64,000 nt of DNA from Phyllosticta citribraziliensis (lineage: Eukaryota), in the NCBI RefSeq assembly GCF_038025025.1, contig NW_027117345.1:682001-746000 (forward strand), read 5' to 3'. The position numbers and the translations under genes were made by a program. Positions within the stretch are counted from its first letter, which is position 1, and the number at the start of each line of letters is the position of its first letter. Positions 5,243-63,000 of the stretch are shown one piece after another. Under the pieces are notes generated by a model. That model made no database searches. It worked only from the letters and a program-made list of their open reading frames with translations, and was not told the origin of the DNA.

Positions 5243-7210
5243 ATGTCGCGGCGCCCTGACCCCCGCGCAGAGCGCGCCGCTCAAAACCAGCAAACACTCA
5301 AGAGCTTGGTCAAGCTGGAGCCGAACAAGAGCTGTGCAGATTGCAAGAGGAACAAGCGTGAGTCAGGCCCTGTCGCTACATTGTCCGCCTCAGTCTTTGC
5401 TGACACTCCTCACAGACCCTCGTTGGGCCAGCTGGAACCTAGGCATCTTCATATGCATTCGGTAGGCAGCCCCTGATGAGACGCCTGCGCCGACCTACGA
5501 GACTGTATCCTGACCAATTCTCAGATGCTCAGGTATACACAGAGGCATGGGCACGCATATCAGCCGAGTCAAGTCTGTGGATCTCGACTCGTGGACGGAT
5601 GAGCAACTGCAGAGCATGCTGCGATGGGGAAATTCAAGAGCAAACAAGTCTGTCTCAAATAACAGCGCCTTGGATATGGATGCTGACGGCCGATAGGTAC
5701 TGGGAATCTAAGCTTGCGCCAGGCCACATTCCCTCTGAAGCGTAAGATCACCACCAACGCTGGTACCCACGGTGACCACTCAGCTGACGGCACTAGGAAA
5801 ATCGAAAACTTCATTCGCACAAAGTATGAATCGAAGCGGTGGGTTATGGACGGTCCTATGCCAGATCCCTCTGCATTGGATACCGAGGGGGACGATGACG
5901 TGGTACGTCCCCGCGGTGGAACTCGCCACGAATCACACTGACCATCTCAGCCACTCAATGTTGTGCAGGAAAAGGCCAAGCTGGAGCGCTCATCCTCGCA
6001 GCGAGCTGCAGCCGCAGCACCAGGCCGGTCTTCCGGTCCTCCTCCGGTGAGGAAGCAACCAACAATGGACATCTTTGGCGACGAGACCACCTCACCTCCC
6101 TCAAGACCTAGCACAGGACCCCCGCCTGTAACCAGACCACCACCCCCCAAGGCTGAAGCTGCTCCTCCCAAGCAAAGCAAGCCGGGAGATTCTCTCCTTG
6201 GACTCGACTTCTTCGGGGGCTCAGGCTCCTCGACGCCGACGCGTCCTGCGAGCACTACGGGATCCGCTCCCTCCAATGCTCCTCGTGCCGACTTGAAGCA
6301 ATCAATTCTCTCCCTGTATGCAGCGAAGCCTGCTGGACAACCTGCTGTCAAGCATCAACATACAGGATCCTCTGGTTCGTTCGGCGGTCTGCAGTCTCCC
6401 GGACTACAATCCCCCCAGTCCCAGTCAAGCCCAATGGGCGGCCTCAACGACGCCTTTAGCAGTCTCAGCATGAACATGGCTCCTCAGCAGGCTCCGAAGC
6501 CCTCGCCTTTCGCCGATCTCATGAACGCCACACCGAAGAGCTCCACACCCGCAAGCTCCCACCAGCCGTTGGGATCTGGCTCTGGATTTGGCAGCGGGGG
6601 CGGTTTTTTCGACTCTCTACCTGCGGCCAAGCCAGCCAATCCTCCTCAGCCGTCTCGGACATTCAGCTCCAACAGTGGATTCGGAGACTTTAGCTCGTCC
6701 ACCTCTCCAGCCGCTGTCAATCCGCCCAAGCCAGCGGCGGCCAGCAATACAGGTGACCTTTTTGACCTTTCATTCGATACTCCCGCTTCTGCTCCTGCCC
6801 CTGCCCCTGCTGCGGCACCAACTAAACCACCTGTCTCTCCAGGCGCCAATTCCGCCTTCAATCTTTCCTCGCCCGCCGCTCCTTTCCAACCGTCTCAGCC
6901 CCAATCCCAGGCGCCGGCCGTAAACTACGCTTCCGGAATGTCGAACTTGGATGCATGGGGATCCAGCGATGCGTGGTCTTCGGCGACCACGGCTACGAAC
7001 AACACGACGGCTACGGCTCCTTCGGCATCGACGCCCGCGTCCAATACCTCAGGCTGGGGAAGCGCGTCGACGCCCCAGGTGACCCACGACGATGACTTTG
7101 GCGGCTGGAACAGCGCGACGGGGTCAAGCACCGCAGCTGCTGGCAACGCCGCTCCCAAGCCGGTCAGCACACTGCCAGGAGATGACCTGTTTGCCAATGT
7201 TTGGGAATAA
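5243..7210 (+). CDS. ArfGAP-domain protein (Age2/SMAP-like); introns 5358-5415, 5462-5524, 5648-5696, 5742-5796, 5903-5950
   Basis: Spliced N-terminus gives the ArfGAP Zn finger [43 protein letters not shown] and ENFIRTKYE; long Pro/Ser-rich tail with KQSILSLY and a DDLFANVWE end. Confidence 0.92.
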
Positions 7211-29795: not shown

Positions 29796-32700
29796 TCACC
29801 CGTCGACATCTACGACTTCACATATCAAGTCGTGGAGAGCCTCCTTGAGCGACTGATTGTGTGCCATGACGAAGAACAACTCCTCCATGACCGGGGCGAA
29901 GGCCTTTCGCACCAAATTTTCTCCCTGCACGCTGACTGTTTTCTCGCCACCGCCGTCTCCGGCATCAACGTCAACGCCCGCCTCCGCACCCCGCCCCGCA
30001 GAAACCACGGCCAAGCGTCGAGCGAGGTTGCGCAGGACCATCACGGATCCCCCCGAAAGACCTTGCGCAACTGTCAGTCCATCGAAGGCCGTATTGAGCC
30101 ATTTCATTTCGCTGAGATGATCCATTCGGGTCCCGTTGAAACCGACATGTCGTCCGTTGGATGGTCCATAGGGCCCGTACGACGCTTGTTGGGGATGCTG
30201 GTCGGTCGTTCGTGCTGGCACAGCCGAAGCTGCGACAGACCGATTGTGTTGGTTCCGTTGCGGGGCCTTTTCTGAGCCGTCTGGCAAATGCGTTATCACG
30301 TGTCTTGCAACGTCGAGAACGGCCGCTCCTTCTCCGTTCCTCGAAAAACGCCGGCAGCCCCCCCAGAGACAGTCGTATTTCTTGTCAGGCGTCGCGCTCT
30401 CCTCTTTCACCCCGTTTGTTGGCGAGTCCTCCACATGCCATTTGCCGTTGGCATCTTTTGAGCATCCAAGATGCGTCGACAGGACGTGGTCCCACATCTG
30501 CTTGGCTTCTTTGACAAATTCGCCACATTCCTCGCCTCTTGCTTTGGATCCATCCGAAAAAGCCGAGTCCGAAAGCCACATGCATTTGATGAACGGTCTG
30601 TTCCGCAGATCCACCGGGATAGTCCTTGGGCGTATTCCCTTGATTGTGTATTTCGATGTGCCCCCGGAATTTACAACCTGTGCCGATGCTGTGGGAAATG
30701 TCGTCGAGACGTTGGTAATGAAATCTTTAGCGGCCATCAGGGGCTTTGGTGGTTTTCCCTGGTTTGCCGGGGGCGCATTGCTGCCTGGAGTTGAGGGAAG
30801 CGAAGATGCCTGATGCTGGGCTTGCGCTTTCTGGATTGGCCCGTTGAATGCTGCATTGTATGCTGTCCAGAGGGCGATCTGGGTTATTTCACCGCTCGGG
30901 TCCTCCTCAAAGCATGTTTTCAGCCTGTGAAGCTTGTCAGATCGTTTTCTGGGACATTTGGCAAAATTCACGTACCACTGTGAGCTGCGGTCAGGTTCAT
31001 CAACAGCAATCAGCTGGTCGATCACCGCACCTGCAAGCTTTGCTGCCGTCTCAGGAGCAGGAGGCGGCGCTCTCGCAGGCAATCGAGATGGAGCGGGCAT
31101 CCTCGTGCTTTGTGCGTTGTGGAGCAGCAGCCGTGTAAGCACTCTGACCAACCCCTCAATATCAACGCTCTCAGCCAGGGTTGCGACGTTCTCGGTTGTA
31201 GTCGTGTAGAGGTAGAGGAAGTCCAGACATGCCTCTCTAAGATGCTCGTCCTCTACAAGCATCCATTCGCATACTTGTTGGACAATCCGAGTAGGGATGC
31301 CTAGGAGCTCGTAGCTTGGGCTTGCACTCATGGCTATGCGCGAGAGAGCACGGAGAGAAGTTATGATGAGCGCTCTGTCGTTCGAGTCTAGTTGTGCAAG
31401 GAGCGTCTGGTAAAGAGGGTGATCGGAGTTGATGATCCAATACCTCGTCAGCTGTTCCGCAATCTCCAAAGCGTAGTGTTTCAATTCCACGACAGAAGCG
31501 CGGCGCGGGAGGTTGAGGGCGATTGTGATGAAGTCTCGGATCTGCGGGAGCTGGGAGACGTAGTAGGCGTTAGCGTCAAGCATGACAAGATTCCGGACGA
31601 CCAAACCGGCCTCGTGGATGCGACCAAGGGCTTCGCTGAAATCCTTTGTTTGGACTTCGTCGTCTGTCAAGGCCAAGAGCGCGTGTGAGTGGATCTTGTT
31701 CAAGATATCCGACGTTCCACTGATTCCATTCAGTGTGTCGTTGCGCTGCAGCAAGGAATCATCCTCGACATAACATATCTCCCATCGTACGCCATAGAAC
31801 AAGGTGCTAATTTCAAGCAACCTCTCTACGAGTGCTTCGGCCAGGCCAGGGAAGCCGTCAAAACGATACTTGTCGCCGCGCTCGTGGGATATTTTTACGA
31901 GATGATGAAGGGCATAAGCTTCCTCCTCGACGTTTCCCGACTTTAGGGCCAGAAGGGCACGAATGTATATATTAGGCCCAGCGAATCCAGCTAAGATGGC
32001 ATCCCATTAGTCACGACCTCAACTTTAAGGGTGAGATTACTTGGTCGACTTACTGCCTGGGAGCATCATCCCTTTATTCGGGTAGGACAGTCCAGACTTG
32101 CGGCTGGCAAGCTTATTCCGTAAATTACGAAAATAGTCGGGGTTGTTGCTAGGCGTTGTAACCGGCTTCACATTGGATGGGAGCACCGGCTTCGGTTCGT
32201 AATTGGCGATCAGACTCGTGATATTGCCACTGGTGCCATGGACACCATTCTGTTGTGAGTAGGAGTTGGTGGCTGGAGTTGGGGAATTATGATGGCCGCT
32301 CGATCGAGTCTGCCGGGTTGCGCTCGCCTCTGGCTGGAAAAGAACCCGCTGTGGAGGCGCATTTCGGAGAGCTGTATGTCGACAGTCAGTCGAATATCGG
32401 TGTGCAAAACTTGCGGTAGTGGACAAGAGAGCAAGTTGCACGGAAGATAGTCATCTGCCCAAGATGTGCAGGATGAGCACCACCACGAGCTTCTCTTACT
32501 CACCTCTAGTAACCCTTCCACCAGTGCTGCCGGGCTCATCAACGTCCATCTTGTCTTCCTTCGGGGTTTTCTGTTCGTCGTCTTCCGACTCGTCGCTGTC
32601 TTTTTCCTGGCCGTTTGCCAAATTTTCCGATCCGCGCTTTGTCGATCCAACAAAGTTCTCCTTGGTGCGCGTAAGCAGATCGCCTCCTCTGGCAGATACG

Positions 32701-39640: not shown

Positions 39641-41520
39641 GTAGCGGCGTTATAACTAAGAGAGCTCTCTTAGTAGGCCCGCCTTATAATATATTAACTA
39701 GTATAGCTAGTTAAATTAATAAAAAATAGCTTCTACTACCTATTTAGTAAGTATTATCTCTAATACTAACTTACTAGCTACTAGCTAGCTATTTAGTAGC
39801 TAAGAGCCTACTAACTAGAGGCTAGACCTCCCCCTAGTTAGTAAAGATACTTATAATAAAGGTTAGAACCTAAATAAGGGTATAAGCTACTACTTAGCTA
39901 TACTAATACTAAACCTATATATAGTAACTATTAATAAGAAGATTATAGTACTATTAATAATACTTAACTTAATAGATATTAAAGAGCTTATTAAAGTATA
40001 CTAGTAAATCTAGAAGCTCTAAGAGATTAAAAGAAGCCTCTTAGAGCTACCTAATCTAGGCCTAATAAGAGGCTACTTATAGCCTAAGCTATAAGCCTCC
40101 TATTATAACCCTCTTAACTCCTTTATTAAAGCCCCTATACCTAAGCTTATAAATATAGAGGTAAAAGATATTAACTCCTAGTTCTAGGCCCTAAATAATA
40201 TATTTAAAATATATAGTACTTTTAAAGACTTAGGGTACTAGTTATAATAGGCTACCTAGAGGCTAGCTATTAATAAGGTAAACCTATATAATAAGGTATT
40301 TAATACCCTTAACTTAAAAATAAGTCCCTTAGTATACTTTAAAGAATTTTATATATTTATTATAGATTAAATCTAGGACCCTAATATATAGAGGTTTAAA
40401 ATATATATAAAGTTCTTTAATATAACCTAAGAAAAGGGGTAGGAGTTTAAAAGCCTATAGTCTATACTAGAAGTAGAAGAATACTATCTAAAGTTTAAGA
40501 TTATAGATAAAGAATACTATATTATATATTAGTTCTTATAGGTATACCCTATACTCTATATTAAGCTAATAGAGATAAGTACTAAGAGCTAGATAAAAAC
40601 TAAATATAAAGTATTTATTAAAGTTAAAAAGGTTAAGGAGCTACTTAAATAGTCCTCTAAAAAGGATAACCCTAAGGGGGTACCTAAATAGGGCTAGTTT
40701 AAACCTAGCTTAGTACCCCCTTAAGGGCTAAGACTAGAGAAAAAGTACTAAGGACTAATATCTAAGAGTAGGACTAATAAACTAGTATACTTAGGGAATA
40801 GCTAAAAGGGGTATTAGAATAGTAACTAAAGCTATTTAGGTAGTACCCCCTAGCTAAAGAGAGACTAACTACTAGCTAATAAGAAGTTAGAAAAAGGTAT
40901 ATTCTAGTTATATATTTAAGAGCTTCTTAGTAACTAGGGTAGGAGAACTAATAAAGAAGCTATTAAGTAATAGATAATTTACTAGTAGTATAAGTTATAT
41001 ATAATATAGCTACTAGGACCTACTCTCTAATAGCCCTTATTAATAATAGTATAACCCTAAATATAATCTAGAGGTCTATAGTATTAGATAAGGGATTAGT
41101 CCCTATTTAAGTACTATCTAGTTACTACCTAATTATTACCTTAGTAGATAGGTCTCCTCTTACCCTAGGCTTAGCCTATAAGTTTTTAACTATAATCTAG
41201 GATAATTATAGTTATAGTAGAACTATAGGCCCCTAGCTATTCTAAGAAAGTTAGAAGGTAGTATTTAATCTTATCCTTAGCCTAGAGTAAATAGGTAAGG
41301 CTAAGTACTACTTTAAGTACTTCTAAGAATATAGAATATTATTCTCCTAGGCTAACCTAAGTTATAAGCTAGTAATTAAGTATATCTTATTAGGTAAACT
41401 AGAAGATAAGATTAACCCTAAAGGATATATCTACTATACCTAGACTATAGGTACTATAGTATAGTAACCCTAATAGGTTAGCTACTTAGGTCCTATAGGG
41501 ACCTTATAGGATATATAATT
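39640..41520 (+). mobile_element. Element C: RIP-degraded Gypsy 5' internal part (gag-protease), no clear LTR; possibly the 5' half of element D
   Basis: CTA ATA GCC CTT ATT AAT AAT AGT ATA ACC at ~41027 restores to an aspartic protease LxALIDxGAT motif; sequence stops at the LTR start of element A. Confidence 0.65.
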
Positions 41521-44500
41521 TATTATAGGTTAGCTAAAAACCTATAATTATATTAAATACTACTTAGTATTAAGTACTAGGTATACCTATACTATAACTA
41601 CTAGCTATAACTATAAGCTATATATACTAAAGTTACCTAACTCCTTAAAAACTATAGCTACTTAGATAACTTAACCCTAGTACCTATATATATATTATTA
41701 ATATAATAATAGAAATAAGAGTAGAACCTCCTATACCTATAATAGAGACTTAGCTAAGTAGTTAGTTTTAAGAAGTATATTACTATTAATAAGCTAATAA
41801 ACTACTATATAATTTAGGATTAAGATAAGATCTCTTCTCTTATAATACCTACCTTCTTTCTATTATAATTCCTAAGGTAAGTTAGGTAATAGAATATAAA
41901 AGAACCTTATTATATAAATATTATAGATAGCTATCTTTATTTTCTTATAATTAATACTTCTAAGTAGACTCCCTATTAATTTAACTTATACCTTATTATA
42001 TACCCTTCTTATTTAGCTTTATCTCCTATACTTATATACCTTAGTATTAGATAGATAGTTACTTAGAACTAGCCTACTAATTAGGTAACCTATTAGCTTA
42101 TAATAGAAAAATAAAGATTATTAAATTACTATATCTTTCCTTATACTAACTCTCCTAATATCTAGGAAGGTCTAAAATATCCCCTACTAAAAATACTAGA
42201 TATATATTCTAGAAATAATACCTATATTAATTAGCTAAGCCCTATTTTAAGTCTTATAATATAAGTACTAGTAGATACCCCTATAAGTTTAAAGGACCTC
42301 TAGGTATATAGCTAGAGCTACTTTATATAAAAAGTAGAGATTAGTATATAAAGAGAATATAGGTAGTCTCCTACTCTAAAACCCCTATAAATAATAAGGT
42401 TATATTATATAGATTAAATTAAATTAAGAACTAGTTAATTATAGCTAATCTAGAATCTAGTTAAAAGGGTAGAGTAATAAGGTTAATTTCTATAGCTTCT
42501 CTAATCTCTTCTATATAAATAGAAGGAAACCCTAATAACCCTTCTTTAAAATTAAAGGAGAACCCTATCCCCCTATAAATTTATAAAGTTAGTTTATTTA
42601 ACCTAAAGCTACTTAAGATAGTAATAGAATAGGGGCCCTATATAGAGGTTATTCCTAAACTCTTTAATAAACTCTTAGAACCTAATAAGGCTAGTAAGAG
42701 CTAGTATAATAAGACTTATAAGATAGAGGTAGTAAAATTACTCCTTAATAAGAAGTATTAAGTAGCTACTATAGAAAGAGTAATCTTCTATTATAGATAG
42801 TTTATAGACTACTATAGGAATACTTATCCTATAAAGAAACTATATTCTCTTATAATTTAGCTTATACTACTATTAGCTAGCCTATTTAGAAGTACTATAT
42901 TAAAATCCTAGACCTACCTCTTCTTATAGATAGAAAAGTACCTAAGTACTAGATCTAGCTCTACTAAGTTAAAAATAAAATTTAGACTAACTATAATTAA
43001 TTTATCTTAGATAACCCTATAGATACTAAGGTAGTAATTATAATATATATTATATCTAGAATAAGTAATAAAGTAGCTAATTACCTTCTTCTATTTCTTA
43101 ATACTAAAGAAAAAGAAGAATTACTTATTACTAATATTAATTTATATACCTTTTTAGGGGATAAGTTTAATAATCCCTTTAAAAGAAAGGAAGTTAAGGA
43201 TAGCCTCTAGTACCTCTACTTTTATATTAATAATAATTTTTAATTATATATTACTAAGTTTATAGCTCTAGCCCTTAATATAGACCTATCTTAGTCCTAA
43301 TAGAAGAAAGAGTTTTATACCTCTTTAAATCTTTAATTAAAAATATATATAATACTCTATAAGGATAATAACTATATTAAGTTCTAAGACTATATTAATA
43401 AGGTATCTACTATTATATATAACTTAAAGGACTATTAAGCTTTATATATATAAGTAAGTAAATCTAAAGCTAAATAATAATAGGAGGAATATTCTAGAAA
43501 GAAAGCTAGTATTAACTCTACTATTTTTAAGAAATCTAATTATATTAGTACTTTTTTATATACTACTAAATCTAAGGAACTTAAGAAGTCTATTAATAAT
43601 AGTAGAAAGGATATCTACTATAATTATAAAAAAGAGAGATACTAGGTATAAGACTATATAGTTTCTATTAAGGAAATAGATATATAGCCTAAAGAAGATA
43701 AGCTAGTACTTAAATTAGAAGAATTCTTTAAGAGTAGTAACTTAGAAAACTCCTTTCTCTAAACTCTAGGCCTATTCTAGAGATAATAATTAGGACCTTT
43801 TAATTTAAAGGTATAGATATTAGAATTAATAATTTTATAGGAGGATAAGCCTTTATTATACCTACTAAGATCTATAAGAATAAAAAAGTTCTTTATATTA
43901 AAGTACTAATTAATACTAGTACTCTTAGGACCTACTTTATCTATTTATAATTTATATAATACCTTAATACCCTTAGTATATAAAAATATAAAATTACTAG
44001 GGGTATACTTAAGGCCTTAGGATTTAATAGATAAGTAGCTACTAAATTAAAGTATACCTATTTCCTTACTATTACCCTTAACTAAAAAATATATAAAATA
44101 TAGGCCTTTATTATAATAATTAGCTATAATAATTTTATATTTAGGAAATATTTCTTTTCTTAAAATAACCTTTTACTAAATTATAAAAAATATAAGCTTT
44201 TTAGCTAAGATAATAAAGCTTTACCTATATATAAAAAAATACTTTTCCTAGTTTACTTAGTAGTATACTAATAAGGAAAAATCTTAGAAATATACTAAAA
44301 AGACCTAGAAAGAAGAGAAAAAGCCTAAAAAGATATAGAAAAGAAAGTAGATAATTTAGAGATTAACTCTTTATTTATTCCTTTAAACTCTCTTTTTATA
44401 TAAAATAAAATTTTAGAAGTCTAAGTTATTACTTTTTAAGAAGTTAATATAAGAATTTAAGAACTTACTTTATTTAAAGAAGATAAAGAAATTATATAAT

Positions 44501-45196
44501 TCCTTAATAAATACCTCCTATTATAGTATAAGGAATACTAAGATATCTTTTCTAAATAATAATTAGATACCTTACCCTTATACTAGCTAGGTATTAATTA
44601 TAAAATTATTATTAATAGAAATAAACCCTTTTCCCTCCCTCTAAGCCCCTTATATAGAATAATAATAGAATAACTATAAGCTATAAAGAAGTATATCCTT
44701 AAAAATCTTAAAAAAGGCTTTATAGTTAAAAGTACTATACTATATATATTACTAATTCTTATAGTCTAGAAGGGTAGTAGTAATTAGAGATTCTATATAA
44801 ATTACTAATATCTAAATACCTATATTAAGAAAGACCTATACCCTCTACCTCTTATCTAAGAAATTCTCTAAAGAATTACTAAGGGTAAAGTATATACTAA
44901 GCTAGATATTTAATAAGTATTTTACTAAATTCTTATAGATCTAGAATCCTAGGACCTAATAACCTTCTATATATAGTATAGATATTTTAAGTATATTATA
45001 CTCCTTTTTAAGCTCTATAATAGTCCTACCTTATTCTAGTACTTTATTAATAAAGAACTTATACTATACCTAGATAATTTTATTATTACTTTTATAGATA
45101 ACCTACTTATTATTTTAGAGAACCCTTAGGAGTATAAGTAGTAGGTTAAGAAGGTACTTAAATAACTATAATATACTAACTTATAGGTAGATATTA
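41521..45196 (+). mobile_element. Element A: Gypsy 5' LTR-gag-protease-RT, truncated inside RT
   Basis: Starts tattataggttag (TG>TA LTR end); zinc knuckle restoring to CYNCKKEGHWARDC ~43616, ALIDTGA ~43905, YPLPLI ~44840, FVDDLLI ~45090; reverse-complement match to 60040-~56298. Confidence 0.92.
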
Positions 45197-48100
45197 GAGG
45201 AGGAAGGTCTTATTCTAAAATAGAAAGAGGGATAATAGTCTCTAGTAGGATAAGATATATCTCTTATATAGCCTTTACTTTTTCTTTCTAAGTCTTTAAA
45301 TCTTCTTATTTTTAAGTAAGGTAATTAGTAATAATATTTTCCTTTCCTAGATAATAGGAGAATTATATATAGAATTCTATAAAAAACTTAGACTATTTAG
45401 CTTATTATTAATTAAGTTATTATTTAGTAGAGTAGTACTCTAATACCTAGTAGTCTATAATTATAAGGAAGGGTTTTTTAAGGCTAATAAGTATTAGTCT
45501 CTATTCTTTAAGTCTATTTTTAATAGCTAGTAGTTCTTTATCTAAGATACTATAATAAAGTTCTATATTAGCTATTACTTTAGAATAGAATACTACTAGT
45601 TTCTATTTATATAAAGGTTATTAGAGCTTTATTAAAATACTAGTAGTAACTCTATTACTTATATTAGTCTCTATATAAGTATTAAGAGTAGGATTATAAT
45701 TAGCTAAGAGTATATTACTATATATTAGCTTCTTAAGTTATTAAATTACCTCTTCTTCTAGGGGTCCTAGTAGTTACTATTTTACCTTAAAGTATAATTT
45801 CTCTAATAGCTAGCTAATTTATCTATAATTAGGGAGAAATTATTAATAGAAATTATAGAAACCTAGGAAAGATTAAAGAGCTTTAAGAGTTTTAGGTATT
45901 AGCTAGTTTTATATAGGTTCTATCTTATCTAGGTCTATTTAAATACCTTTAGTAGATATAATATATCTAAGAAACTTTATATAAGTAACTAAAAACTTAC
46001 TCTTCTTTAGATCTATTTATAGTCCTACTTTTTATAGTCTTACTAGTACTTTTTTTACTTATTCTTTATATTCTATAGGGTCTTTAGAGATAATAAGTAT
46101 ATTATCTATAAAAGCTATAATAAAATTATCTAAATACTTAAAGAGAACCTAGTTAATAAAATATTAAAAGGCTATAGGTCTATTACTTAAGCTAAAGGGT
46201 AGGATATAGTATTTAAATAAACTATATCTTATATAGAAAGTAGTTTTATCTTTAGAATCCTTAATAAGATAAATATAGTAGAAAGCTTATTAAATATCTA
46301 GTTTAGTATAAATCTTACCCTTTCTAATATACTAAAGTAACTCTATAATAAGAGGAAGAGGGTATAAATCCTTAATAGTTTATTTATTAAGCTATTAGTA
46401 GTTTATATAAAATCTCTATCCCCTATTAGGCTTTTTTACTACTAGAATAGGAGAAGTAAAGGTAGTAAAGCTTTAAGTAATAAATCCCTTCTAAATATTC
46501 TTAATAATATACTCTTTTATAGCCTTAAGCTACTCTAGAGATATTCTATAAAGAGGACTAGGAGGAAGCTCTAATAGACCCTTATATATAAGAGATATCT
46601 TATAATTAACTCCTATATAATAGGGTAGTAGCTTATTAGACTCTATTTTAGAAAATATATCTTAAAAATCCTTATAAGTAGTAGGTAGCTTAGAAGCTAG
46701 TAATTCCTTAATTTCTTTATCTTTAATAGCTTATTAAACTTATATAAGGTTAATAGTATAGATCTCTATTAGTATAACTTATATTTTATAAATAGAAAGC
46801 TTAAAAATATCTTAAGTTTAAAATTTAATTCCCTTAATAACCTATACTAAGGGAAGAAGGTACTTATTAAAGTTTTTATCTCTATAGTCTATATCTACTT
46901 AGTATTCTTTCTATAGTATATTACTTTATATAGAGACTTTTAGTAGGTATAAAAGATATTAAAAGGATTAGTTAACTAGTAGCTATCTCTAGACTAGTTT
47001 ATATTATTTATAGTCTAGAAGAATATTATACTAGTTAAAAAACTATTATCTAAGAATTATATTATTCTAGCTAATATTATAAATAAAAGTATAAGTAGAA
47101 ACTATTTAATCTTAGAAGTAGAGTTAAAGATAAAAGTAAAAATTAACTTTCTTATTTATATATTAGTTAAACCTAGTAATATTAAGCCTATTACCTATTA
47201 TTCTCTTTTTTAAAGTACCTATAGACTAGAGAGTTAGTAGTAGCTTAGGATAAATAAAACTTATACTACTAGTACTAATATTAGCTAGGGTATAAATTTC
47301 TAAGGTATAGCTATTAGATATAATTAAGGTTTATATAATAAAGGGTATACCTCTAATAAAGTAATTAAGGTTTATATAAGAACCCTTAATATATATTACT
47401 CTAAGTTTAGACCTAAGGTAGGAGACTTTACCTAGGTCTTATTATTTTCTAATAAGGACTAATCTTCTATATTTATATAAATATTCTTAGTACTCTCTTC
47501 TTCTATTAACTCTATTATCTTTATCTCTAGTTATAGGTATTATCTCTATAAATAGCTAAATTAGCTAGAGTAATTATATAGTCTAATTTCTATATAGAGT
47601 TCTACTTTACTTTTATATATTATATTATATAAGGAAGCCCTTAAGATAGATTATATATAAATATAACTAGAAGATAAAGTACTTATACTACTTAAGAAAA
47701 TTATTTTTACTCTCTCCTATTATCTCTTCTTAGCTTATTCCTTATATAAGGTAAGTATTAGTTTTCTATAGTTAGATTAGTAGTTACTAAGACTTTAAGT
47801 AATAGAATAGGCTCTTTAAAGGTACTTATAAAAATTAATATCCTTATCTTACTCTATAGTAACTATATAGGTTTAAAGGAGTAAGTCTATTATATTATAA
47901 AAATCCTCTTTCTATTATTCTTAGAGAAGATCTATATCTAAAGCTAATTATATAAAGTTAAATTAAAACTTCTAAAGGTCTATAGGAATATAGTATATAA
48001 ATAAGTATAATTACTTCTTTATATCCTTATACTTATATAGACTCTAAAGGAGGTTATCTAGGAATTTAAAGATATCCTTATCTAGAGTAACTTTATTAGC

Positions 48101-49586
48101 CTTTATATAAGAAGTAAGAAAAGGAATTAAGTATTATAAGATTTCTCTATTAATATAAAAGATAATATATCTTATAATATTCTATTTAGTCTCCTCTACT
48201 ATACCTTTAATAAAGTAATTATAGTTTTATTTAATTTTATTTTATATAAGAAGAGTCTAGTATTTATATAAGGGGTCTTCTCTATTAATAAAAAGAGAAG
48301 GATTAAGAACCTTCCTACTCTTATATTTCTTATTAGAAGAAGAAGTAGAGGTTTTAATAGTAATTTCCCTTATATAGATAATTAAAGGTCTAAAAGTCCT
48401 TATTATCCTACTAGTAAAAGGATCTTATAAGAGGGTAATAGGTCTTAAGTTCTAACTAAATAAAGAGGGCTTAATATATCCTTCCTTTAAAGCTTCCCTT
48501 AGACTATTAGTATAGTTTAAGAGTATTTATTTAAGAGCCTAGTTTTACCTTTATATATAATTTAATTACTACTATACTTAAAGCTTATTTAAGGATATAA
48601 TCTTAGATTTAAATTAATTAATATCTAAATATAGTACCTTTATAAATACCTCTATAACTAGAGCTTATATTATATAAGTTAGTTCTAGATTTTAAGTATA
48701 TTCCTTTATCTCTACTACTATAACTATATAGAAATTATAAAGAAGAATAGGAGGAGCTCTCCTTTTATTATTATTTAATAAGGGTCTAAAATTATATAAA
48801 TCTTTAGTTCCTTTATATAAGTCTTATTAGGTAGATAGACTAGTACTAATACCTTTAGTAGTATTAGATATATTAGCTTTATTCTTAACTATACTATCTT
48901 TATAGTCTTCTACTTAGAATATCCCTTAAGTAGGTTATAAATAGGATACCTTCTAGATATTTATATACTACCTTATAGCCTTAATTAAAGACTTCTATAA
49001 TTAATATATACTTAATACTCCTTAGTCCTTAGATAATACTAATATACCTAATAAAGATAACTTAGGTTTACTAGGGAAAAGTAATAAGTAGTATTATATA
49101 AGACTATAGCTATATATAATATTATTTAGGTTAAATATTATAATACCTTTATAGGTAAAGAAGTAGGATAGAGCTAAAACTTAGAATAATCTTTTATATC
49201 TATTATAACTTATAGATTTCTTATTATATAGATAAGGACTAAAGGTAAACTACTAGAGAATATATATATATCTTAATTAAATCTAATAAGTTAAAAGAAT
49301 AAAATATAAAAGATACTTATTATCTATATATTCTCTAGCCTTCTCTTTATCTATTCTACCTCTTATCCTTTATATAAGGGTCCTTAGTTATTATTAGGTA
49401 AGTTATAAAGGTAAGGTATTAATAGGCTATTATACTATATCTATCTAGGGCTATAGTGGCTAGTACTAGGCTATAGTAGCTAGTTACTACCTAAGGTAAG
49501 GCTTATACTTCTTATAACTATATAATGCTAGGTTTATCTATACTGGCCTTAGTACTCGCGTAGGCGCGTGTATACCTATTATAATA
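45197..49586 (-). mobile_element. Element B: Gypsy 5' LTR-gag-protease-RT-RNaseH, truncated before integrase
   Basis: LTR start at ~49586 (minus tattataatagg); knuckle ~47540-47580; LPFGLSNGP and FVDDVLII ~46090-46200; TDH and RNaseH motifs ~45450-45680. Related to, but distinct from, family A. Confidence 0.88.
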
Positions 49587-52500
49587 TATATAGGAATTCT
49601 CCTATAGCCTATAGTTAGAAATAATAGGGCTATATACTAGTACCTAATTACCTACTACTTATATAAGTTTATTACTACTAAAGTATAGTATAATACCTAT
49701 AATAAAGAGTTATATACTATTATAGAATACTTTAAAATATAGTAATACTATCTAGTATATATACCTACTACTATATAAGTCCTTATAGATTATAATAACC
49801 TCTACTACTTTATAGAAACTAAGTACCTAACTACTTAGCAGGCCTAGTATATAGAGTTACTTATAGAGTTTAATTTTAAGATTAGCTATAAACCTAGCTT
49901 AACTAACCTTATTAATAGCCTATCCTATTACCCTAGCTATACTAGGGGCTTTAAAGAGATAGATAAATAGCTAGTATTAGATATTCTACTATCTATACTA
50001 TAGTAAAAGCTCTAAGTAAAGAATCCTAAGGAGTTCCTAGGTACTATTAACCCCCTATATACTAGCTAGATAGATATATTATAGTACCTACTTAGAGCTA
50101 ATAACTTAGTAATACTACCCTTAATTTAAGTCCTTTCCTATAATAGGAACCCCTTTATAGTAGCCCTAATTATTAGTATTAGCTTAGTACTAAACTTAAT
50201 ACCTTACTAGGAGGTAGTAGTAGCTACTACTAGTAAAATAGCCTATATTAACCCCCTTAAGTCTCTCCTCTAGCTACTTCTAGATAGCTAGAGAGTAGAC
50301 CCTCTATATAATAAGGTCTATATAGATAGTATAATAGGGATAGATAGTACTAGAGAGAAGTACTCTATAGACCCCTAAGGTTTTATCTACTAAGATAGTA
50401 AGGTATAGGTACCTAATAGTACCCTATTATATAGTAAGATCTTCCTATAGAACTATAATAACCTAGTTAGTAGGTACTTTAGTATTAAATATACTATTAA
50501 AGTTATTAGCTATAAATACTAGTAGCTAATACTATTAGCTAATATTACTATATATATAGGAGACTATAATACCTACTAGTAAAATAAATTATAGTAGTAC
50601 TAGCTATATAGGCTCTTTAAGCTAGTTTAAAAACTAACTATACCCTAGTAATACTTTATAATAGATTTTATTATAGACCTTCTAGCCTCTTAGGACCTAT
50701 TAGGATATAAATATAATATAATTCTAGTCCTAGTAGATAGGTTTATAAAGTTTATATAGTACTTCCCTATATAAATAACTATTAGTATAGATAGGCTTAC
50801 TATACTTATCTAATATAAGGTTATTATAGCTACTAAATACCTAGTTAATATTATTTTAGACTAGAGTAGCCTCTTTATAAGTAACTACTAGAGTACCTTT
50901 TACTACTACTTAGGAGTTATCTATAAGTTAAGTATAGTATTCTATCTATAAACTAATAAGTAGATAGAGTACTAAAACTAGAAACTAGAGGTATACCTAT
51001 ATATATATATATTAACTATAAATAATCTAACTAGGCCTCTAGGCTTAGAGAGGCTACCTTTACCTATAATAATAAGATATACTCTATAATAAAATTTACT
51101 CTAATCTATCTAGTCTTTAACTAGGTACTAAATATCTCTAATAGTATACTAGATACTATACTCTAAATAGGGAAGGGAATTAATAAGGATACTATAAAGT
51201 ATCTAGTTAAAGATAAAGGGGCTACTATAGGCCCTAATATTTCTATATTATCTAATTTAGAGTAAGTCTAGTAAGTAAAGAGCTACCTCTACTAGCTAGT
51301 ATATATTTATAATAAGGCTAGAAGGTATATTAAGTATATTAGGATACTCTAGGCTAAGTATACTAATTACTACTAATTAGATAAATAGTTTAATATAGGG
51401 GATAAGGTACTTCTCTTATTAAAAAATATCTATATTAAGTAGCTAATAAAGAAGCTAGATACCTAATATCTAGGCCCCTTTCCTATTATCTAGTAGTATA
51501 GTAGGATAGTATATAAATTAGAACTCCTACTAAGTATAGTAAGAATCTACCTAATATTTTATATCTCCCTACTAGAGCCCTATTAGGGCCTAGTAGATAC
51601 TAAACTACTTCTTATTAAAATTAATAATAAGGGTAATAAGTACTAAGAAGTAGAAATAATTATAGACTATAAACTTATTCCTAAGGGGGTATAATACTAT
51701 ATTAAGTAGATAGGCTACTTAAATAAATTTAATAAATAGATATATAGGGATAGCCTAGAAAATTACTAAGAAATACTAGATATATATAAGTCTTCCTATA
51801 ATATTTTAAGAAACCTAACTAAATATAAGTAAATAGTACTTAAGAGGATAGTAAGTAGGCTAGTAATAGTAGCCTTAGTAAAGTATAGTTAAAGGTAACC
51901 CCTAGGGTTAAGAAATAGGTTAAAAGGGCTAGTAGCTATAATTAGGGACCCCTTTAGAACCCTTTAAAAAGCTAATAATAGGCTAGGGGATAGAGAAGAC
52001 TACTTAAATAGTAACTTAAATAATAATATAGAACTATTAAGCTAGGAGGAGTATAATAATAGGTTATAAGGAGCTAGGAATAGGATAATAAGTAAAAATA
52101 GAAGAGAAGTAAGTATATCTTAAGAACTATCCTATAACTAGCTACTATAACCTAATATAAAAGTAGAGCCTTCCTCTACTAACTATACCTATAAAAGAAA
52201 CTATAATTATTATAGGGGTATTAAAAAGGATTTAAAAACTCTATTAACTAAGGCTTATTAAGACCTAGATTAAGGAAAACCTAGGTAAAGATAGAAGAAA
52301 GACCCTATCCTCTAATTTAAATACTATAGTAGAGAGTATTATAGTAAGTAGAAGTAATATATATATATAATAGCTAGAGCTACTTAAACTATATATTTAC
52401 TATAATATTAGTAGGATTATTAGGGCTAAAGAAACTACCTACTCCCTATAAAGGTTAGTTAGAGGATAGTAAAGTTAAATAAAGCCTAAAGAGTAGTAAC

Positions 52501-54425: not shown

Positions 54426-57400
54426 CTTATATAGAGATATATACCTTATTACCTTCCTTAAAGTCTAGTTTATACTAGAATTAGTTTATAGCTTATACTA
54501 TTTACTCCTAGGTAAGACCTAGCTATTATTTAGCCTACTATATACTTTCTTATATATATTTAGTAAATCTTTCTATAGTAATATAAGATAGTTTCTCTAT
54601 AGGTTCTAGATATATAGTATATTTCTCCTAATTAAATAGGAAACTAGGCTAGTAGCTAAAGATTAACTTATAGGGGGATATACCTATAGATTTATATAGG
54701 AGTATAACTTATATAAAGTCTAGTACTAGAAGCCTTTCTACCTAGTTATCCTAGAAATAGTTAATATATAGTTATAGATATAGGTTAATAACCTAGTTTA
54801 TAATTTTAGTAGTACTATTTATCTAGAAGTAGTAGGCTAAGGTAAGCTTCTATTTAACTCCTATAATTATATATAGCTTATTCTAAAAATCTAAAATAAA
54901 CTAGGGTCCTTAGTTAGAAACTACTAATTTAGGTATACTATATATTCTCTAGATATACTAGTAGTATAGTTAGGTAATACCCTTAGTATTAATTACCTTA
55001 TAGTAGGGAAGGCTAAAGGTTTACTTATTTAACTAGTCTATAAATACTAAGATAGTATTATATTTAGATTTATCCTTAGGTATCTCCTTAAAGTCTATAG
55101 TAATATACTACTATACCTAGTCTAGGATTAAGAGGGGTTAGAGTAGTCCTAGTTTCTTATTATAGAAGTTTATATTCCTTTAGTATATATAGTAGGCTTT
55201 TATAATATTATTAATTTACTAGAAAATACTTAGCTAGTAGTAGTATCTTCTTACTATTTCCTAAGTTTTATTTTATCTAGTATATATAAGTAGGGATAAT
55301 AAGTAAATTTTATTTACTAGCTCTATATATAGTATATCTTACTTAGGAACTATAAGTTACTCCTTAAAGAAGAGGTAGTTATTATAGAAGGTTTAATCCT
55401 TCTTATTAGGTTTATAGGCTTATATATACTATCCTTCTAATAAGGTAGACTTTTTATTTACTTTTAATACTCTATCTAGGATTAGAAATAAGCTACTAAA
55501 AATAATATTAAGGGTATTTAGATTAAGGATCTAGTCTTTAGCTACTAGTTATATTATATACCTAGTAATACTCTTATTCTTCTAGGTTTATAGCTCTTCT
55601 TATTTTTAAGTAAGGGTATTAGTAATAATATTATCTTTACCTAGTCTATATATAAATTATATATAGTATTTAGTAAGTTTTTCTAACTATTAGGCTTATT
55701 AAGTATTAAGTTAGTATTTAGTAGAGAAGTATTTAAGTACCTAGTAATTAATAATAGCTATAAATAGCTAATATAGGCCTAGGAGTATACTTCTCTATTC
55801 TTTAAATCTATATATAATAGTAAGGAACTCTTTATTATAAATTTTATACTAGAGTTCTATATCTAATATTAACTTAGAGTAGAAAGCTATAGGCCTCTAT
55901 TCTCTAGTTTCTTAATACTATAATAAGACTCTAGCTACTACCCTATTACTTATATCTATTTCTATATATATAAGTAGCTTAGAATTATAGTATACTATTA
56001 TTAAGAAGCTAGTTATTATCTTCTTTAGTTATTAGAATATCTAGACCTTAAAATTATTAAGGGTATAGAATTTTTATTTAGAGTAGAGTTTCTCTAGAGG
56101 TCTAATTATTCTATTATATTTAGGGATAAAGTTTTAATAGAAATTATAAAACCCTAGAAAGGCTTAAAGTCCTTTAAGGATTATTAGTAAGTTCTATTTA
56201 TATATAATAGATATCTTATTTAGATCTATAGAAATTCTATTAATAGAGATAATATATCCTAAAAACTTTATATAGATAATAGAGAATTTAGATTTCTTAA
56301 TATCTACCTATAAGTTAGTATATTATAGTTATTTAAGTACCTTCTTAATCTACTACTTATACTCCTAAGGGTTCTCTAAGATAATAAATAGGTTATCTAT
56401 AAAAGTAATAATAAAATTATCTAGGTATAGTATAAGTTCTTTATTAATAAAGTACTAAAATAAGGTAGGACTATTATAGAGTCTAAAGAGGAGTATAGTA
56501 TACTTAAAATATCTATATTATATATAAAAGGTTATTAGGTTCTAGGATTCTAGGTTTATAAGAATTTAATAAAAGGCTTACTAAATATCTAGCTTAATAT
56601 ATACTTTACCCTTAATAATTCTTTAGAGAATTTCTTAGATAAGAGGTAAAGGGTATAGGTCTTTCTTAATATAGGTATTTAGATATTAGTAATCTATATA
56701 GAATCTTTAATTACTACTACCCTTCTAGACTATAAGAATTAGTAATATATATAGTATAGTACTTTTAACTATAAAGCCTTTTTTAAGGTTTTTAAGGATA
56801 TACTTCTTTATAACTTATAATTATTCTATTATTATTCTATATAAGGGGCTTAGAGGGAGAGAAAAGGGTTTATTTCTATTAATAGTAATCTTATAATTAA
56901 TACCTAGCTAGTATAGGGGTAGGGTATTAGACTATTATTTAAAAAAGATATCTTAGTATTCCTTATACTATAGTAGGAGGTATTTATTAAAGAGTTATAT
57001 AGTTTCTTTATCTTTTTTAAGTAAAGTAAGTTCTTAAATTCTTATATTAACTTTTTAAAGAGTAATAACTTAGACTTCTAAGGTTTTATCTTATATAAAA
57101 AGAGAGTTTAAAGGAATAAATAAGGAGTTAATTCTAAGGTTATCTACTTTCTCTTTTATATCTTTTTAGGCTTTTTCTCTTCTTTCTAGGTCTTTTTAGT
57201 ATATTTCTAAGATTTTTCCTTATTAGTATACTACTAAGTAAACTAAGGGAAGTATTTTTTTATATATAAATAAAGCTTTATTATCTTAGCTAAGAAGCTT
57301 ATATTTTTTATAATCTAGTAAAAGGTTATTCTAAGAAAAGAAATATTTTCTAAGTATAAGATTATTATAATTAATTATTATAATAAAGGCCTATATTTTA

Positions 57401-60040
57401 TATATTTTTTAGTTAAGGGTAATAATAAGAAAATAGGTATACTTTAATTTAGTAGCTACTTATCTATTAAATCCTAAGGCCTTAAGTATACCCCTAGTAA
57501 TTTTATATTTATATATACTAAGGGTATTAAGATATTATATAAGTTATAGATAGATAAAGTAGGTCTTAAAAGTACTAATATTAATTAGTACCTTAGTATA
57601 GAGAGCTTTCCTATTCTTATAGATTTTAGTAGATATAGTAAAGGCTTATCCTCCTATAAAATTATTAATTCTAATATCTATACCTTTAAATTAAAGGGTT
57701 CTAATTATTATCTTTAGAGTAGGCCTAGAATTTAAAGAAGGGAATTTTCTAAGTTACTACTTTTAAAGGATTCTTCTAGTTTAAGTACTAGCTTATCTTC
57801 TTTAGGCTATATATCTATTTCTTTAATAAAAATTATATAGTCTTATATCTAGTATCCCTCTTTTTTATAATTATAATAGGTATCCTTTCTACTATTATTA
57901 GTAGACTTCTTAGGTTCCTTAGATTTAGTAGTATATAAGGAAGTACTAATATAACTAGGTTTCTTAGAAGTAGTTAAGCTAATACTAGCTTTCTTTCTAG
58001 AATATTCCTCTTATTATTATTTAGCTTTAGATTTACTTACTTATATATATAAAGCTTAATAGTCCTTTAGGTTATATATAATAGTAGATACCTTATTAAT
58101 ATAGTCCTAGAATTTAATATAGTTATTATCCTTATAGAGTATTATATATATTTTTAATTAAGGGTTTAAAGAGGTATAAAACTCTTCCTTCTATTAAGAC
58201 TAGGGTAGGTCTATATTAAGGGCTAGAGCTATAAATTTAGTAATATATAATTAAAAATTATTATTAATATAGAAGTAGAGATACTAGAGGCTATCCTTAG
58301 TTTCTTTTCTTTTAAAGGGATTATTAAACTTATCCCCTAGAAAGGTATATAAATTAGTATTAGTAATAAGTAATTCTTCTTTTTCTTTAGTATTAAGAAA
58401 TAGAAGAAGGTAATTAGCTACTTTATTACTTATCCTAGATATAATATATACTATAATTACTACCTTAGTATCTATAGGGTTATCTAAGATAAATTAGTTA
58501 TAGTTAGTCTAAATTTTATTCTTAATTTAGTAGAGCTAGACCTAGTACTTAGGAGCTTTTCTATTTATAAGGAGAGGTAGGTCTAGAATCTTAATATAAT
58601 ATTTCTAAATAGGCTAGTTAGTAGTAGTATAAACTAAATTATAGGAGAATATAGTTCCTTTATAAGATAAGTATTCTTAGTTAGTCTATTTTTTAATAAT
58701 TTTATCTATTATATAGACTAGTAGGATTACTAAAATTTTATTCCTATAGTAGTTTATAAACTATCTATAGTAGGAGATTACTCCTTCTATAGTATCTACT
58801 TAGTACTTCTTATTAAGGAGTAATTTTATAATCTCTATTTTATAAGTCTTATTATACTAACTCTTACTAGCCTTATTAGGTCTTAAGAGTTTATTAAAGA
58901 GTTTAGGAATAACTTCTATATAGGGCCCCTATTCTATTACTACCTTAAGTAGCTTTAGGTTATTTAAACTAACTTTATAAACCTCTAAGGGGATAGGGTT
59001 CTCTTCTAGTTCTAGAGAAAGATTATTAGGGTTTCCTTTTATTTATATAGAAGGAATTAGAGAAGCTATAAAAGTTAATCTTATTACTCTATCTTCTTAA
59101 TTAAATTCTAGATTAGCTATAGTTAACTAGTTCTTAATTTAGTTTAATCTATATAGTATAACCTTATTATTTATAAAGATTTTAAAATAGGAGACTACCT
59201 ATATTCTCTTTATATATTAATCTCTACTTCTTATATAAAGTAGCTCTAGCTATATACCTAGGGGTCCTCTAGGCTTATAGGGGTATCTACTAGTATTTAT
59301 ATTATAAGACTTAGAGTAGGGCTTAGCTAATTAGTATAGGTATTATTTTTAGAATATATACCTAATATTCTTAGTAGGGGATATTTTAGACCTTCCTAGA
59401 TATTAGGAGAGTTAATATAAGGAAAGATATAATAATTTAATAATCTTTATTTTTCTATTATAAGCTAATAGGTTACCTAATTAGTAGGCTAGTTCTAAGT
59501 AACTATTTATCTAATACTAAGGTATATAAGTATAGGAGATAAAGCTAAGTAAGAAGGGTATATAATAAGATATAAGTTAAATTAGTAGGGAGTCTACTTA
59601 GGAGTATTAATTATAAGAAAATAAAGATAGCTATCTATAATATTTATATAATAAGGTCCTTTTATATTCTATTACCTAACTTACCTTAGGAGTTATAATA
59701 GAAAGAAGGTAGGTACTATAAAAGGAGAGATCTTATTTTAATCCTAAATTATATAGTAATTTACTAGCTTATTAGTAGTAATATACTTCTTAAAACTAAC
59801 TACTTAGCTAAGTCCCTATTATAGATATAGGAGGTTCTATTCTTATTTCTATTATTATATTAGTAATATATATATAGGTACTAGGGTTAAATTATCTAAG
59901 TAGCTATAGCTCTTAGAGAGTTAGGTAACTTTAGTATATATAGCTTATAGTTATAGCTAGTAGTTATAGTATAGGTATACCTAGTACTTAATACTAAGTG
60001 GTATTTAATATAATTATAGGTTTTTAGCTAACCTATAATA
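54426..60040 (-). mobile_element. Element A': second copy of family A, 5' LTR through integrase, interrupted by element D
   Basis: 60001-60040 is the exact reverse complement of 41521-41560; FVDDL ~56400, ETDASNGVVAGVLSQ ~55920-55965, VDRLSK ~55035; ends at F.EGDKVYVS ~54430-54470. Confidence 0.92.
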
Positions 60041-63000
60041 AAGGGGAGCTAAAATCTTATAAGCTATAGTTAATTAAATAGCTATTAATAAATAAGTTAG
60101 GAATATAGCTAAGTATGTAGTAACTAATAAGACTAGGAATATATCTAATAAGGATATCTTAGGTATAACCCTACTAGTAAATATACCTTAATAGCTAAGA
60201 TAACTAGCTATTACTAGTCTACTAGGTAGTAATATTAAAGAACCTACTATCTCTAGTAAAGAGCCTATATAAGAGCCTAATATAGATAAACCTTAGAGGG
60301 TAACTATAGAGGATATTAATAAGGATATATCTAATATTAAAGAAATCCTATAAAATAAGCTAAGTATTATACTTAAGGGATTAGAGAGTAATAAGCTAGA
60401 GCTACTTAGTAAAGGGGCCCCCCCTAAGTAGTACTAGGTTAAAACCATTATATTTAGAGACCTATTCTATTATAAGTAGTATAAACTAGGTCTAAATAGC
60501 TAGAGATATAGAGATATCTTTAATAAGGAGACTATTAGGTATATAAAAGGAATCCTTAGCCTATATAATAATATATAGAAGCTATTTTACACTCCTATTA
60601 ATACTAAGATTATAGAAGAGGTCTAAGAAATACTTTATAATAACCTATAGGTATTAAATAAATACCTATATATAATAGATAATCTATAGAAGCTAATATA
60701 TACTATATATATAAAACTAGTTAATAATATTAAAGGGTACTAGTTTAACTCCTCTAGTAAGCCTATAGAATTTAACTTCTCCTAGTATTACCTATTTAAG
60801 TAAGAAGATTATTTCCTAGATAGGATCTTTATATATTTAAATATACTAATTAATATATTAGTTACTAAGGGTAAAACTATCTCTAGAGTTTTTAACTATA
60901 TATATATAAGCCTAGTATATACTATAAAGTATATACCTACTTAGAGCTTTATTTTATATAGGCCTAATAGTAAGCCCCTTTAGGATAGTAAGCCTATAGA
61001 CCTATTAATATATAAGATATACTTTAGTATTAAATTACTAGAGGGTTAGGAGGATTCTATAACTACTAGAGGAGACTATAAGCTAAAGCTAATAACCTAT
61101 AAGGAGGTTATAATACTAGCTAAGTAATAGGGCCTTTTTATCTACTATATCCTATTACCCTTTATCCTAGTATCCTTTAGTAGCTATATAGTATAAGTAC
61201 TAGTAGATACTAGAGTAAATATAAATAGTATTTCTAAGGCCCTTATAGCTAAACTTAGTATCCTAGTATAGGATATACTACCTAATAGTTTTAATATAAC
61301 TATAGGATTTATAAATAGTTTAAAGTATAAAATTAAATATTAGATCCTAAGTTTAGCTATTTTAATAGAAGATTAGTCTTAGAGTACTTATTTCTTAGTA
61401 TATAACTAAACTACTATTCCTATTATATTAGGAATACCCTAGATTATCTTAGTAGGTAGTAAATTTAAAACTATACCTACTAGAGTAGTTAAGCTAAGGT
61501 TTACCTACCCTATTAACCCTTACTACTATATAGAAATTATTACCTACTAGGTATTCCTATTTATTAAAGGTATTAAAGATACTATATACTATATTAGTCC
61601 TATTAAAATCTAAAGTAGTAATAGTTTATAAGTAGTAGGGCTAGGAAACTAGCTAGTATAATAATTTAGGGGCTAATTAGTATATAATTACTATACTAAC
61701 TAGTAGGAGGCCTATATAATTAAAAAAAATAAAATACTAAAAATATTAATTTAGTATTAGATAATATATTTTTAACTATATATATAATAGGAGAATAGAG
61801 TATTATTTATTATAGGGTATCTTAGTATAGTATATTTCCTAATTATCTTAATACTACTAGATAATAAAACCTATATTAGTATATAGTATATAAATAAAAA
61901 GGTATAAAAATAGAGCCTATAGATAACTTAATACTATAGGAGAAGTTATTAAATATAATTAAGGGATAGAAAACTAAAGAAACTATAATTATTAAGTAGA
62001 CTACTATACTAGTAAGGGATCTCTAGGGCTAGGGATAATTTACCTACTTATTTTATTTAAGGATTACTATCTTTTAACTAGGTATATACCTTATATAGGA
62101 AAGGCTAGCTAGCCTTATTACTAGAGATAACCTCTAGTTAAGAGAGTAGGAACTAATACTAGAAATATTATATAGTAGAGAGGGTACTATCTTATTTAAT
62201 CTTTTAGAAATAGGATAAGTTAAGCTAATAGTAATATATAGGTTCCCTATTAGGATAATACTATATAAGGCCTAGAGAGTTAGAGTATTATATATTTTAT
62301 AAGCTAAAATATAGTATATATTTAACTTACTTACTACTTAGTAAGATATAGGGATTATTAAGTACTACTCTAGTTAATATTATAATCCCTAGATAGTCTT
62401 ACCTAAGAAGAATAGTATATATAGGTAGATTAATAATTTATAAATACTAAATAATATTACTATTTAAGATGCTAGTATACTAGGACTAATAGATAATTAT
62501 ATAGAATACTAGAGAGGGCTTATAATATATACCCTTATAGACCTATACTCTAGTTTTAATTAGTTTATAGTTACTAAAAAGTACTAGGATCTTACTAGAT
62601 TTATTACTCCCTAAGGATACTAGTATAACTATATACTTTCCTAAGGTATAACTAATTCTCTAGGATAGGTAGTTTATAGCCTAAGATATATACTAGATAA
62701 CTAATAGGATAAGGCTAACCTTTTTATAGATAATATTATAGGAGGCTAATAAAGGAGCTAATATAATAATATAGAAAGTATAATTATAGGAGTTAGATAA
62801 TTTATACTTAAGTATATCTATAATATTAATAATATACTATAGAACCTAGAACTAGCTAGACTTATAATCTTAGGAGAGAAGTCCTTCTTTAGTATACTAG
62901 AAGTAGAAGTTATTAGGTTTAGATATAAAGAGTTTAGATACCTACTTATTAAGTCTAAAGTAGATAAGATTAATAATTAGGATACTTCCTAAGACCTTAA

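Follow-up and report, generated by a model that had tools for sequence, protein, structure and literature searches.

Chromoviruses such as MAGGY of Magnaporthe and the Tcn1-like elements carry a chromodomain at the C-terminus of their integrase, and the one of MAGGY is described as targeting regions with methylation of histone H3 at lysine 9 (H3K9me) (10.1101/2021.11.30.470311, citing Gao et al. 2008). Here, we analysed a 64,000-nucleotide stretch of Phyllosticta citribraziliensis DNA (contig NW_027117345.1, positions 682,001 to 746,000; the window from here on), and in it element D, at 49587-51967 on the plus strand. D is what remains of a Ty3/Gypsy chromovirus: a dead copy, truncated at its 5' end, that saturating repeat-induced point mutation (RIP) has inactivated. 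Its ancestral Pol almost certainly ended with an SH3-like domain, a chromodomain, an unconserved linker of about 27 residues, a canonical AT-hook (a GRP core within an R/K-rich 13-mer), a short tail and a stop, and many intact relatives share this arrangement.

At the level of domains, D and its relatives resemble the described chromoviruses: Pfam displays the order RNase H, H2C2, rve, SH3_Tf2-1, and Chromo in the relatives, D keeps relics of it, and the chromodomain has aromatic cage positions. The differences are that the Pol described here runs past the chromodomain into a linker and a canonical AT-hook, and that D is a truncated, RIP-killed copy without identifiable long terminal repeats (LTRs).

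Outside retrotransposons, AT-hooks are described as cooperating with histone readers, for example with the chromodomain of CBX2 (PMC11354804). In this Polycomb chromobox protein, a methyl-lysine-reading chromodomain is followed by an AT-hook, as in the relatives of D, but CBX2 is a subunit of a cellular repressor and not an integrase, so the likeness is architectural only. LEDGF/p75 combines a histone-mark reader (PWWP) with AT-hook-like motifs, which together hold HIV integrase on chromatin (PMC11354804). It is a separate host protein, bound by way of an integrase-binding domain, and it sends integration to active chromatin; in the hook-bearing chromoviruses, by contrast, reader and hook are part of the integrase itself, and silent chromatin would be their target. 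A/T-rich satellite DNA is reported to be directly recognised by the AT-hook in Polycomb repressive complex 1 (10.1101/2024.10.11.617947).

The hooks of HMGA proteins (consensus TPKRPRGRPKK) share the GRP core and the R/K and P flanks with those described here, and the tails of the relatives P0154 and P0194 read ...RGRPKGSKNK, matching the second hook of HMGA1 as given in a 2024 review of AT-hooks (...RGRPKGSK..., PMC11354804). HMGA proteins differ in carrying three hooks, as opposed to one per Pol in nearly all the relatives; moreover, the Pfam scores of the relatives lie below the cut-off, and DNA binding by their hooks is a prediction.

A full-text literature search, with element databases (Repbase, GyDB, InterPro) outside its scope, found no description of an AT-hook in the integrase of a chromovirus or any other LTR retrotransposon. 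The same review contains no occurrence of 'transpos', and a survey of fusions between transposons and chromatin domains is likewise silent on AT-hooks. Among the papers listed by the search, a review of Sleeping Beauty does contain the term 'AT-hook'.

The hook site of element D

GC content drops abruptly from 55% to 25% near 35.0 kb of the window. Positions 1 to ~35,000 are GC-balanced (~55%) and gene-like, and 35200-64000 is a RIP-saturated, AT-rich block (GC 0.25, no strand assigned) that houses D and other Gypsy fragments. RIP-mutated repeats are recognised by a TpA/ApT index above 0.89 and a (CpA+TpG)/(ApC+GpT) index below 1.03. These indices were 1.79 and 0.011 in 35201-64000 and 1.99 and 0.004 in D, as compared to 0.54 and 1.25 in the gene-rich part. 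Thus, both D and the AT-rich block have the CpA/TpG depletion and TpA excess of RIP-mutated repeats; in the 28.8 kb of 35201-64000 we counted only 11 CA, 17 TG, and 12 CG dinucleotides against 6683 TA. Since RIP is saturated at CpA, TpG, and CpG, each CA, TG, or CG of the ancestral sequence is read as TA today.

The hook relic lies at 51881-51919 on the plus strand, in frame with the chromodomain start at 51641. The first-pass annotation had quoted its bases correctly, AAG TAT AGT TAA AGG TAA CCC CTA GGG TTA AGA AAT AGG, which translate as K Y S * R * P L G L R N R (asterisks are stops), and had proposed that reversing only C>T and G>A changes would restore an RGRP core and so an AT-hook. All seven codon reversals fit the RIP contexts of this block. 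However, the core by itself says little: when we scanned 35001-64000, allowing any T to come from C and any A from G, a RIP-compatible RGRP core appeared at 440 of 58,000 positions, or roughly once every 130 codons. This is not above chance when compared to the mean of 484 in Markov-shuffled sequence.

What stood was the longer motif carried by relatives. The real 13-mer of P0027, KRGRGRPRGSRNR, fits 12 of the 13 codons at 51881-51919 (6 identical and 6 RIP-compatible), and the sole position scoring as high among 57,918 is this site itself. The 13-mer of P0156 fits 11 of 13 and is also unique among the 57,918 positions. Hooks of more distant relatives did not discriminate, as that of P0100 fits 5 of 13, a score met at 6350 positions. 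In the MAFFT alignment, the V-K-Y-S-*-R-*-P-L-G-L-R-N-R of D stands directly beneath QKRGRGRPRGSRNR of P0027, RRGRGRPPGKNK of P0021, and RRGRGRPRGSKNK of P0001.

The metagenomic relative L012, which is un-RIPed (GC 0.53), gives the DNA of a natural hook: AGA CGT GGA CGA GGG CGA CCA CGC. It uses CGT and CGA for arginine, the very codons that had been postulated for D, and five consecutive codons of it turn into D's TAT AG- TAA AGG TAA under CG>TA and TG>TA. The G-R-P core with K/R flanks is therefore present outright in relatives and, in D, through RIP-compatible ancestry only. At the technical level, reversing RIP recovered a real motif once it was checked against un-RIPed relatives; alone, it is not evidence.

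The chromodomain relic spans 51641-51800 on the plus strand. It is backed by phmmer alignments over 51641-51800, by the MAFFT alignment, and by tblastn with chromodomain-only queries, which matched 51617-51796 (15 queries; best expect value (E) 2.4e-5). The phmmer matches and tblastn alignments spanning 51617-51800 are to proteins in which Pfam detects Chromo at E 1e-11 to 1e-18. The relic contains five in-frame TAA/TAG stops. In the alignment to relatives, two of the five lie beneath an invariant W (TAG from TGG), one lies beneath a Q found in two of four relatives, and one lies beneath a position of the aromatic cage (F, F, Y, W).

The unconserved linker of 27 codons follows at 51801-51880. 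It holds the sole in-frame stop between the chromodomain and 51881, a TAA at 51830-51832 that RIP can produce. Linkers in relatives measure ~24-60 residues. After the hook, a short tail (51920-51967) reaches the first in-frame stop, the TAA at 51965-51967; the Pol proteins of relatives end 0-20 residues past their hooks. This TAA is the probable end of pol, and it could itself be RIP-made.

Two details of the first-pass annotation did not hold. The 'KRKR-like stretch' before the hook is just L-K-R...S-R, and the 'acidic run' after it lies past the TAA at 51965-51967, with nothing comparable in any of the relatives that bear a hook. Pfam detected neither Chromo nor AT_hook in the stop-masked translation of D, only SH3_Tf2-1 and a weak RT_RNaseH; in the tails of relatives the AT_hook model did match in three of five, below its cut-off.

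Hooks among relatives

We searched 1.84 billion representative proteins with phmmer, using the stop-masked translation of 51068-52099 as query, and obtained 1292 matches at E<=1e-3. Most alignments cover query residues 192-245 (51641-51800) and stop at the chromodomain end. Four of the 150 best matches (P0001, which is the top match, P0021, P0027, and P0100) present a canonical AT-hook shortly past the chromodomain and 10-14 residues from the C-terminus, and all of them have Integrase_H2C2, rve, SH3_Tf2-1, and Chromo according to Pfam. Of 42 relatives of P0027, 13 have a hook, the six closest among them, and so do 9 of 111 further relatives of P0001. Un-RIPed relatives thus hold the motif at the same place, which upholds the proposal of an AT-hook following the chromodomain in frame in a chromoviral integrase. 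The commonest taxon in the top cluster of an atlas search was Ascomycota, and a protein search with the tail of P0156 returned the query alone.

For the tree, we kept 194 of 302 proteins, dropping the 108 that do not cover reference residues 25-225 (integrase C-terminus to chromodomain). A hook is present in 29, absent in 136, and cannot be judged in 29 with too short a tail (29 of 165 judged). Hook-like motifs are concentrated in the tails, with 17 in 5008 post-chromodomain residues against 5 in 65,771 pre-chromodomain residues, a tail enrichment of about 45-fold; one of the 17 is in a SUV39H2 methyltransferase and not in a transposon. The linker varies in length and sequence among relatives and the GRP core does not, which suggests a constraint on the hook itself. 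In the relatives examined, the whole chromodomain-linker-hook module takes ~90-125 residues.

Two proteins deserve mention. P0158 (1525 aa) has three AT-hooks past the chromodomain, at residues 1393, 1497, and 1518, so the number of hooks is not fixed at one. P0190 (source name SUV39H2, from Elysia marginata) is a cellular histone methyltransferase that was matched through its chromodomain; it has RGRP at residue 219, ~40 residues past its chromodomain motif, and so offers a further example of a hook-like motif behind a chromodomain.

With all 194 proteins in the tree, D joins P0006, P0197, P0200, and P0154, of which P0197 bears a hook. This placement is unreliable because D has a long branch and a RIP-skewed composition, and we therefore used a RIP-aware identity in its stead, computed over the integrase-to-chromodomain region (224-246 aligned columns) with the hook excluded. 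By this measure, the four proteins closest to D all bear a hook (P0154, P0197, P0194, and P0001), and a hook is present in 10 of the top 25 as compared to 29 of 194 overall. The nearest neighbour of D in the tree, P0006 (302 aa), is I/Y/K-rich and looks like a RIPed P0197; the deviant letter make-up common to P0006 and D may pull the two together.

Three metagenome loci bear a hook (L003, L004, and L012). The end repeats of L003 and L012 resemble collapsed multi-copy assemblies and L004 has no repeats, so none of them offers usable flanks for comparing flank GC between hook-bearing and hookless elements.

What the hook may do

The hook is rather likely to be a selected DNA- or chromatin-binding element. 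As the best explanation, which we hold at even confidence, it would complement the chromodomain, the reader of H3K9me, as a second tether that binds DNA, as in CBX2 or LEDGF/p75, steering insertions to silent, AT-rich DNA. In active relatives, the chromodomain would dock the integrase on H3K9-methylated nucleosomes, as for MAGGY, and the terminal AT-hook would add a second, low-affinity contact with the minor groove of adjacent AT-rich DNA. Such a bivalent tether may stay longer on AT-rich heterochromatin, and new copies would then land in silent, gene-poor DNA. As AT-rich DNA is largely RIP-made in RIP-competent fungi, the preference could become self-reinforcing.

The narrower claim that the hook homes specifically to AT-rich or RIP-made DNA we consider unlikely. 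In the broadest version, the chromodomain (for H3K9me) and the HMGA-type AT-hook (for AT-rich DNA) of a widespread fungal chromovirus lineage would form one fused homing device of two parts that steers insertions into RIP-made AT-rich heterochromatin; this seems doubtful to us. That D lies among other transposons of the RIP block is compatible with targeted insertion and with accumulation alike.

Several points weigh against the tether. For every hook-bearing element, the function of the hook is a prediction from sequence, and a single AT-hook is described as binding DNA weakly (PMC11354804). D is a single copy, its ancestral sequence comes from RIP compatibility rather than from a comparison of copies, and its place in the tree is unstable, since no supported clade contains it when P0006 is removed. 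The Pfam AT_hook model matches at the motif in three of five tails of relatives (10.4, 8.0, and 12.9 bits) and gives no match in the other two, with all scores under the gathering threshold of 17.4 bits and an E of 0.45 for P0100. It is the only model at the motif in these three tails and the sole listed family for two of them, and, having 13 positions, it may be too short for a single copy to reach the cut-off.

The hook is also patchy: in FastTree trees, its state changes at least 20-21 times over the 165 judged proteins. The close metagenomic relatives L002 (~6240-6290) and L003 (6446-6487) are set apart by in-frame indels totalling 18 bases (9, 6, and 3), which delete the GRP core; L002 retains a basic tail and shares its stop codon with L003. 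An in-frame loss of this kind with the basic tail kept indicates that the hook is dispensable or can be replaced by plain basic residues.

Nuclear import is the main rival, because hookless sister elements keep short, strongly basic tails (...KKAREKSK, ...KRARRDR, ...RKRKRS, ...KKRSRNATKTP), as L002 does after losing its GRP core. The hook would be real, but its R/K-rich C-terminal tail would mainly serve as a nuclear localisation signal for the integrase or the pre-integration complex in fungi with closed mitosis, and the GRP core would be incidental. The integrases of Ty1 and Ty3 have a C-terminal nuclear localisation signal, a role that HMGA2 gives to its second AT-hook. However, a plain import signal needs no full G-R-P core with R/K flanks, and this core, often extended to ...RGRPKGSKNK, recurs in many divergent relatives. 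We give import as the main job a minority chance, and import and tether could coexist.

The tail could also be a generic basic patch without any preference in base composition, which would bind DNA or RNA non-specifically, helping to capture the target or assemble the intasome, or would anchor to the nucleosome through its arginines. Basic tails do occur both with and without GRP in one subclade, and flanking residues are described as supplying much of the binding of low-affinity single AT-hooks (PMC11354804). We regard this as quite improbable, since it leaves unexplained both the enrichment of GRP in tails over the rest of Pol and the resemblance to the high-affinity hooks of HMGA. Finally, that the hook of D is a chance outcome of free C>T/G>A reversals in AT-rich DNA and its ancestral Pol was hookless is close to refuted: it would agree with the frequency of the bare core, the one D copy in the window, and its unstable tree position, but not with a unique 12-of-13 fit to the 13-mer of P0027 in which six codons are identical without reversal, nor with an in-frame site 27 codons past the chromodomain, where the hooks of relatives sit, nor with natural L012 codons equal to the postulated ones.

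The architecture of genomes is shaped by where retrotransposons choose to land. The genomes of many filamentous fungi are divided into GC-balanced compartments and AT-rich ones, between which genes and transposons are sorted; fast-evolving genes are often located in the latter. If they did home to RIP-made DNA, hook-bearing elements would exploit and enlarge the transposon-rich AT isochores of these 'two-speed' genomes, with RIP supplying the DNA signal that is read. A chromoviral integrase with readers for both DNA composition and a histone mark would match host tethers such as LEDGF/p75 or CBX2 in a self-contained form, and would provide a simple, testable mechanism for AT isochores drawing further insertions. 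The module is short and present in many intact relatives, which makes it amenable to domain swaps; a swap that placed a chromodomain on Tf1 in fission yeast has been reported.

Other parts of D and its surroundings

Upstream of the chromodomain, the remains of D are collinear on the plus strand. The RNase H region lies at 49587-50024, recovered by tblastn of P0155, P0154, P0156, and others starting at about residue 552-629, and by Pfam RT_RNaseH (E 3e-4 at ~49638-49871). The integrase zinc-binding and catalytic core region lies at 50157-51011 (tblastn of P0027 residues 357-645) and is out of frame with the downstream part, with a frameshift near 51000. The SH3-like C-terminal domain of the integrase, SH3_Tf2-1, lies at 51398-51583 (PF24626 on the stop-masked translation, E 1.6e-7, 31.8 bits, where the cut-off is 30). 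RNase H, integrase, and SH3_Tf2-1 thus follow the Ty3/Gypsy-type domain order over 49587-51583, with the reverse transcriptase (RT) missing from the truncated copy.

Homology begins at 49587, and tblastn with Gypsy relatives found no RT, protease, or gag of D upstream of it on the plus strand, so D is 5'-truncated. A repeat search, blastn, and self-comparison, both plain and purine/pyrimidine-collapsed, found no flanking direct repeat that could represent its LTRs. Without an LTR pair, D is a truncated fragment and not a whole element. Direct repeats of 1.45 kb (45278-46724 and 55573-57015) were considered as its LTRs and rejected, as they encode, on the minus strand, the RT-RNase H of other Gypsy copies.

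Those other copies include a Gypsy RT-RNase H fragment at 45198-46721 and an RT-RNase H-integrase fragment at 54553-56967, both on the minus strand, detected by tblastn and not part of D. The first-pass annotation had D nested inside another Gypsy element; the minus-strand pieces on either side (46721-45198 and 56967-54553) overlap in Pol, both including the RT region, and therefore cannot come from a single element that D cut in two. Positions 46725-49586, the ~2.9 kb that separate the minus-strand RT fragment from D, presented no tblastn match to the Gypsy proteins used.

Chromodomain-only tblastn detected no second chromodomain in the AT-rich block, such as the one that the first-pass annotation gave to element F. 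Weak chromodomain-like matches were observed in the GC-rich part, at 25166-25312 (minus strand, E 6e-4) and 30795-30893 (minus strand, E 5e-3), and may be either host chromodomain genes or chance.

The RIP sweep in 35201-64000 is unusually complete, with the remaining cytosines only in CpT and CpC. The block also contains an inverted 3.7-kb duplication of a Gypsy gag-to-RT segment, 41519-45196 against the reverse complement of 56298-60042. The two stretches present an identity of 91.7%, which rises to 99.6-99.7% after purine/pyrimidine collapse. Transitions account for 225 of the 235 differences, all at surviving CpT and CpC sites; as the differences are nearly all C/T or G/A in these contexts, the copies were RIPed after the duplication.

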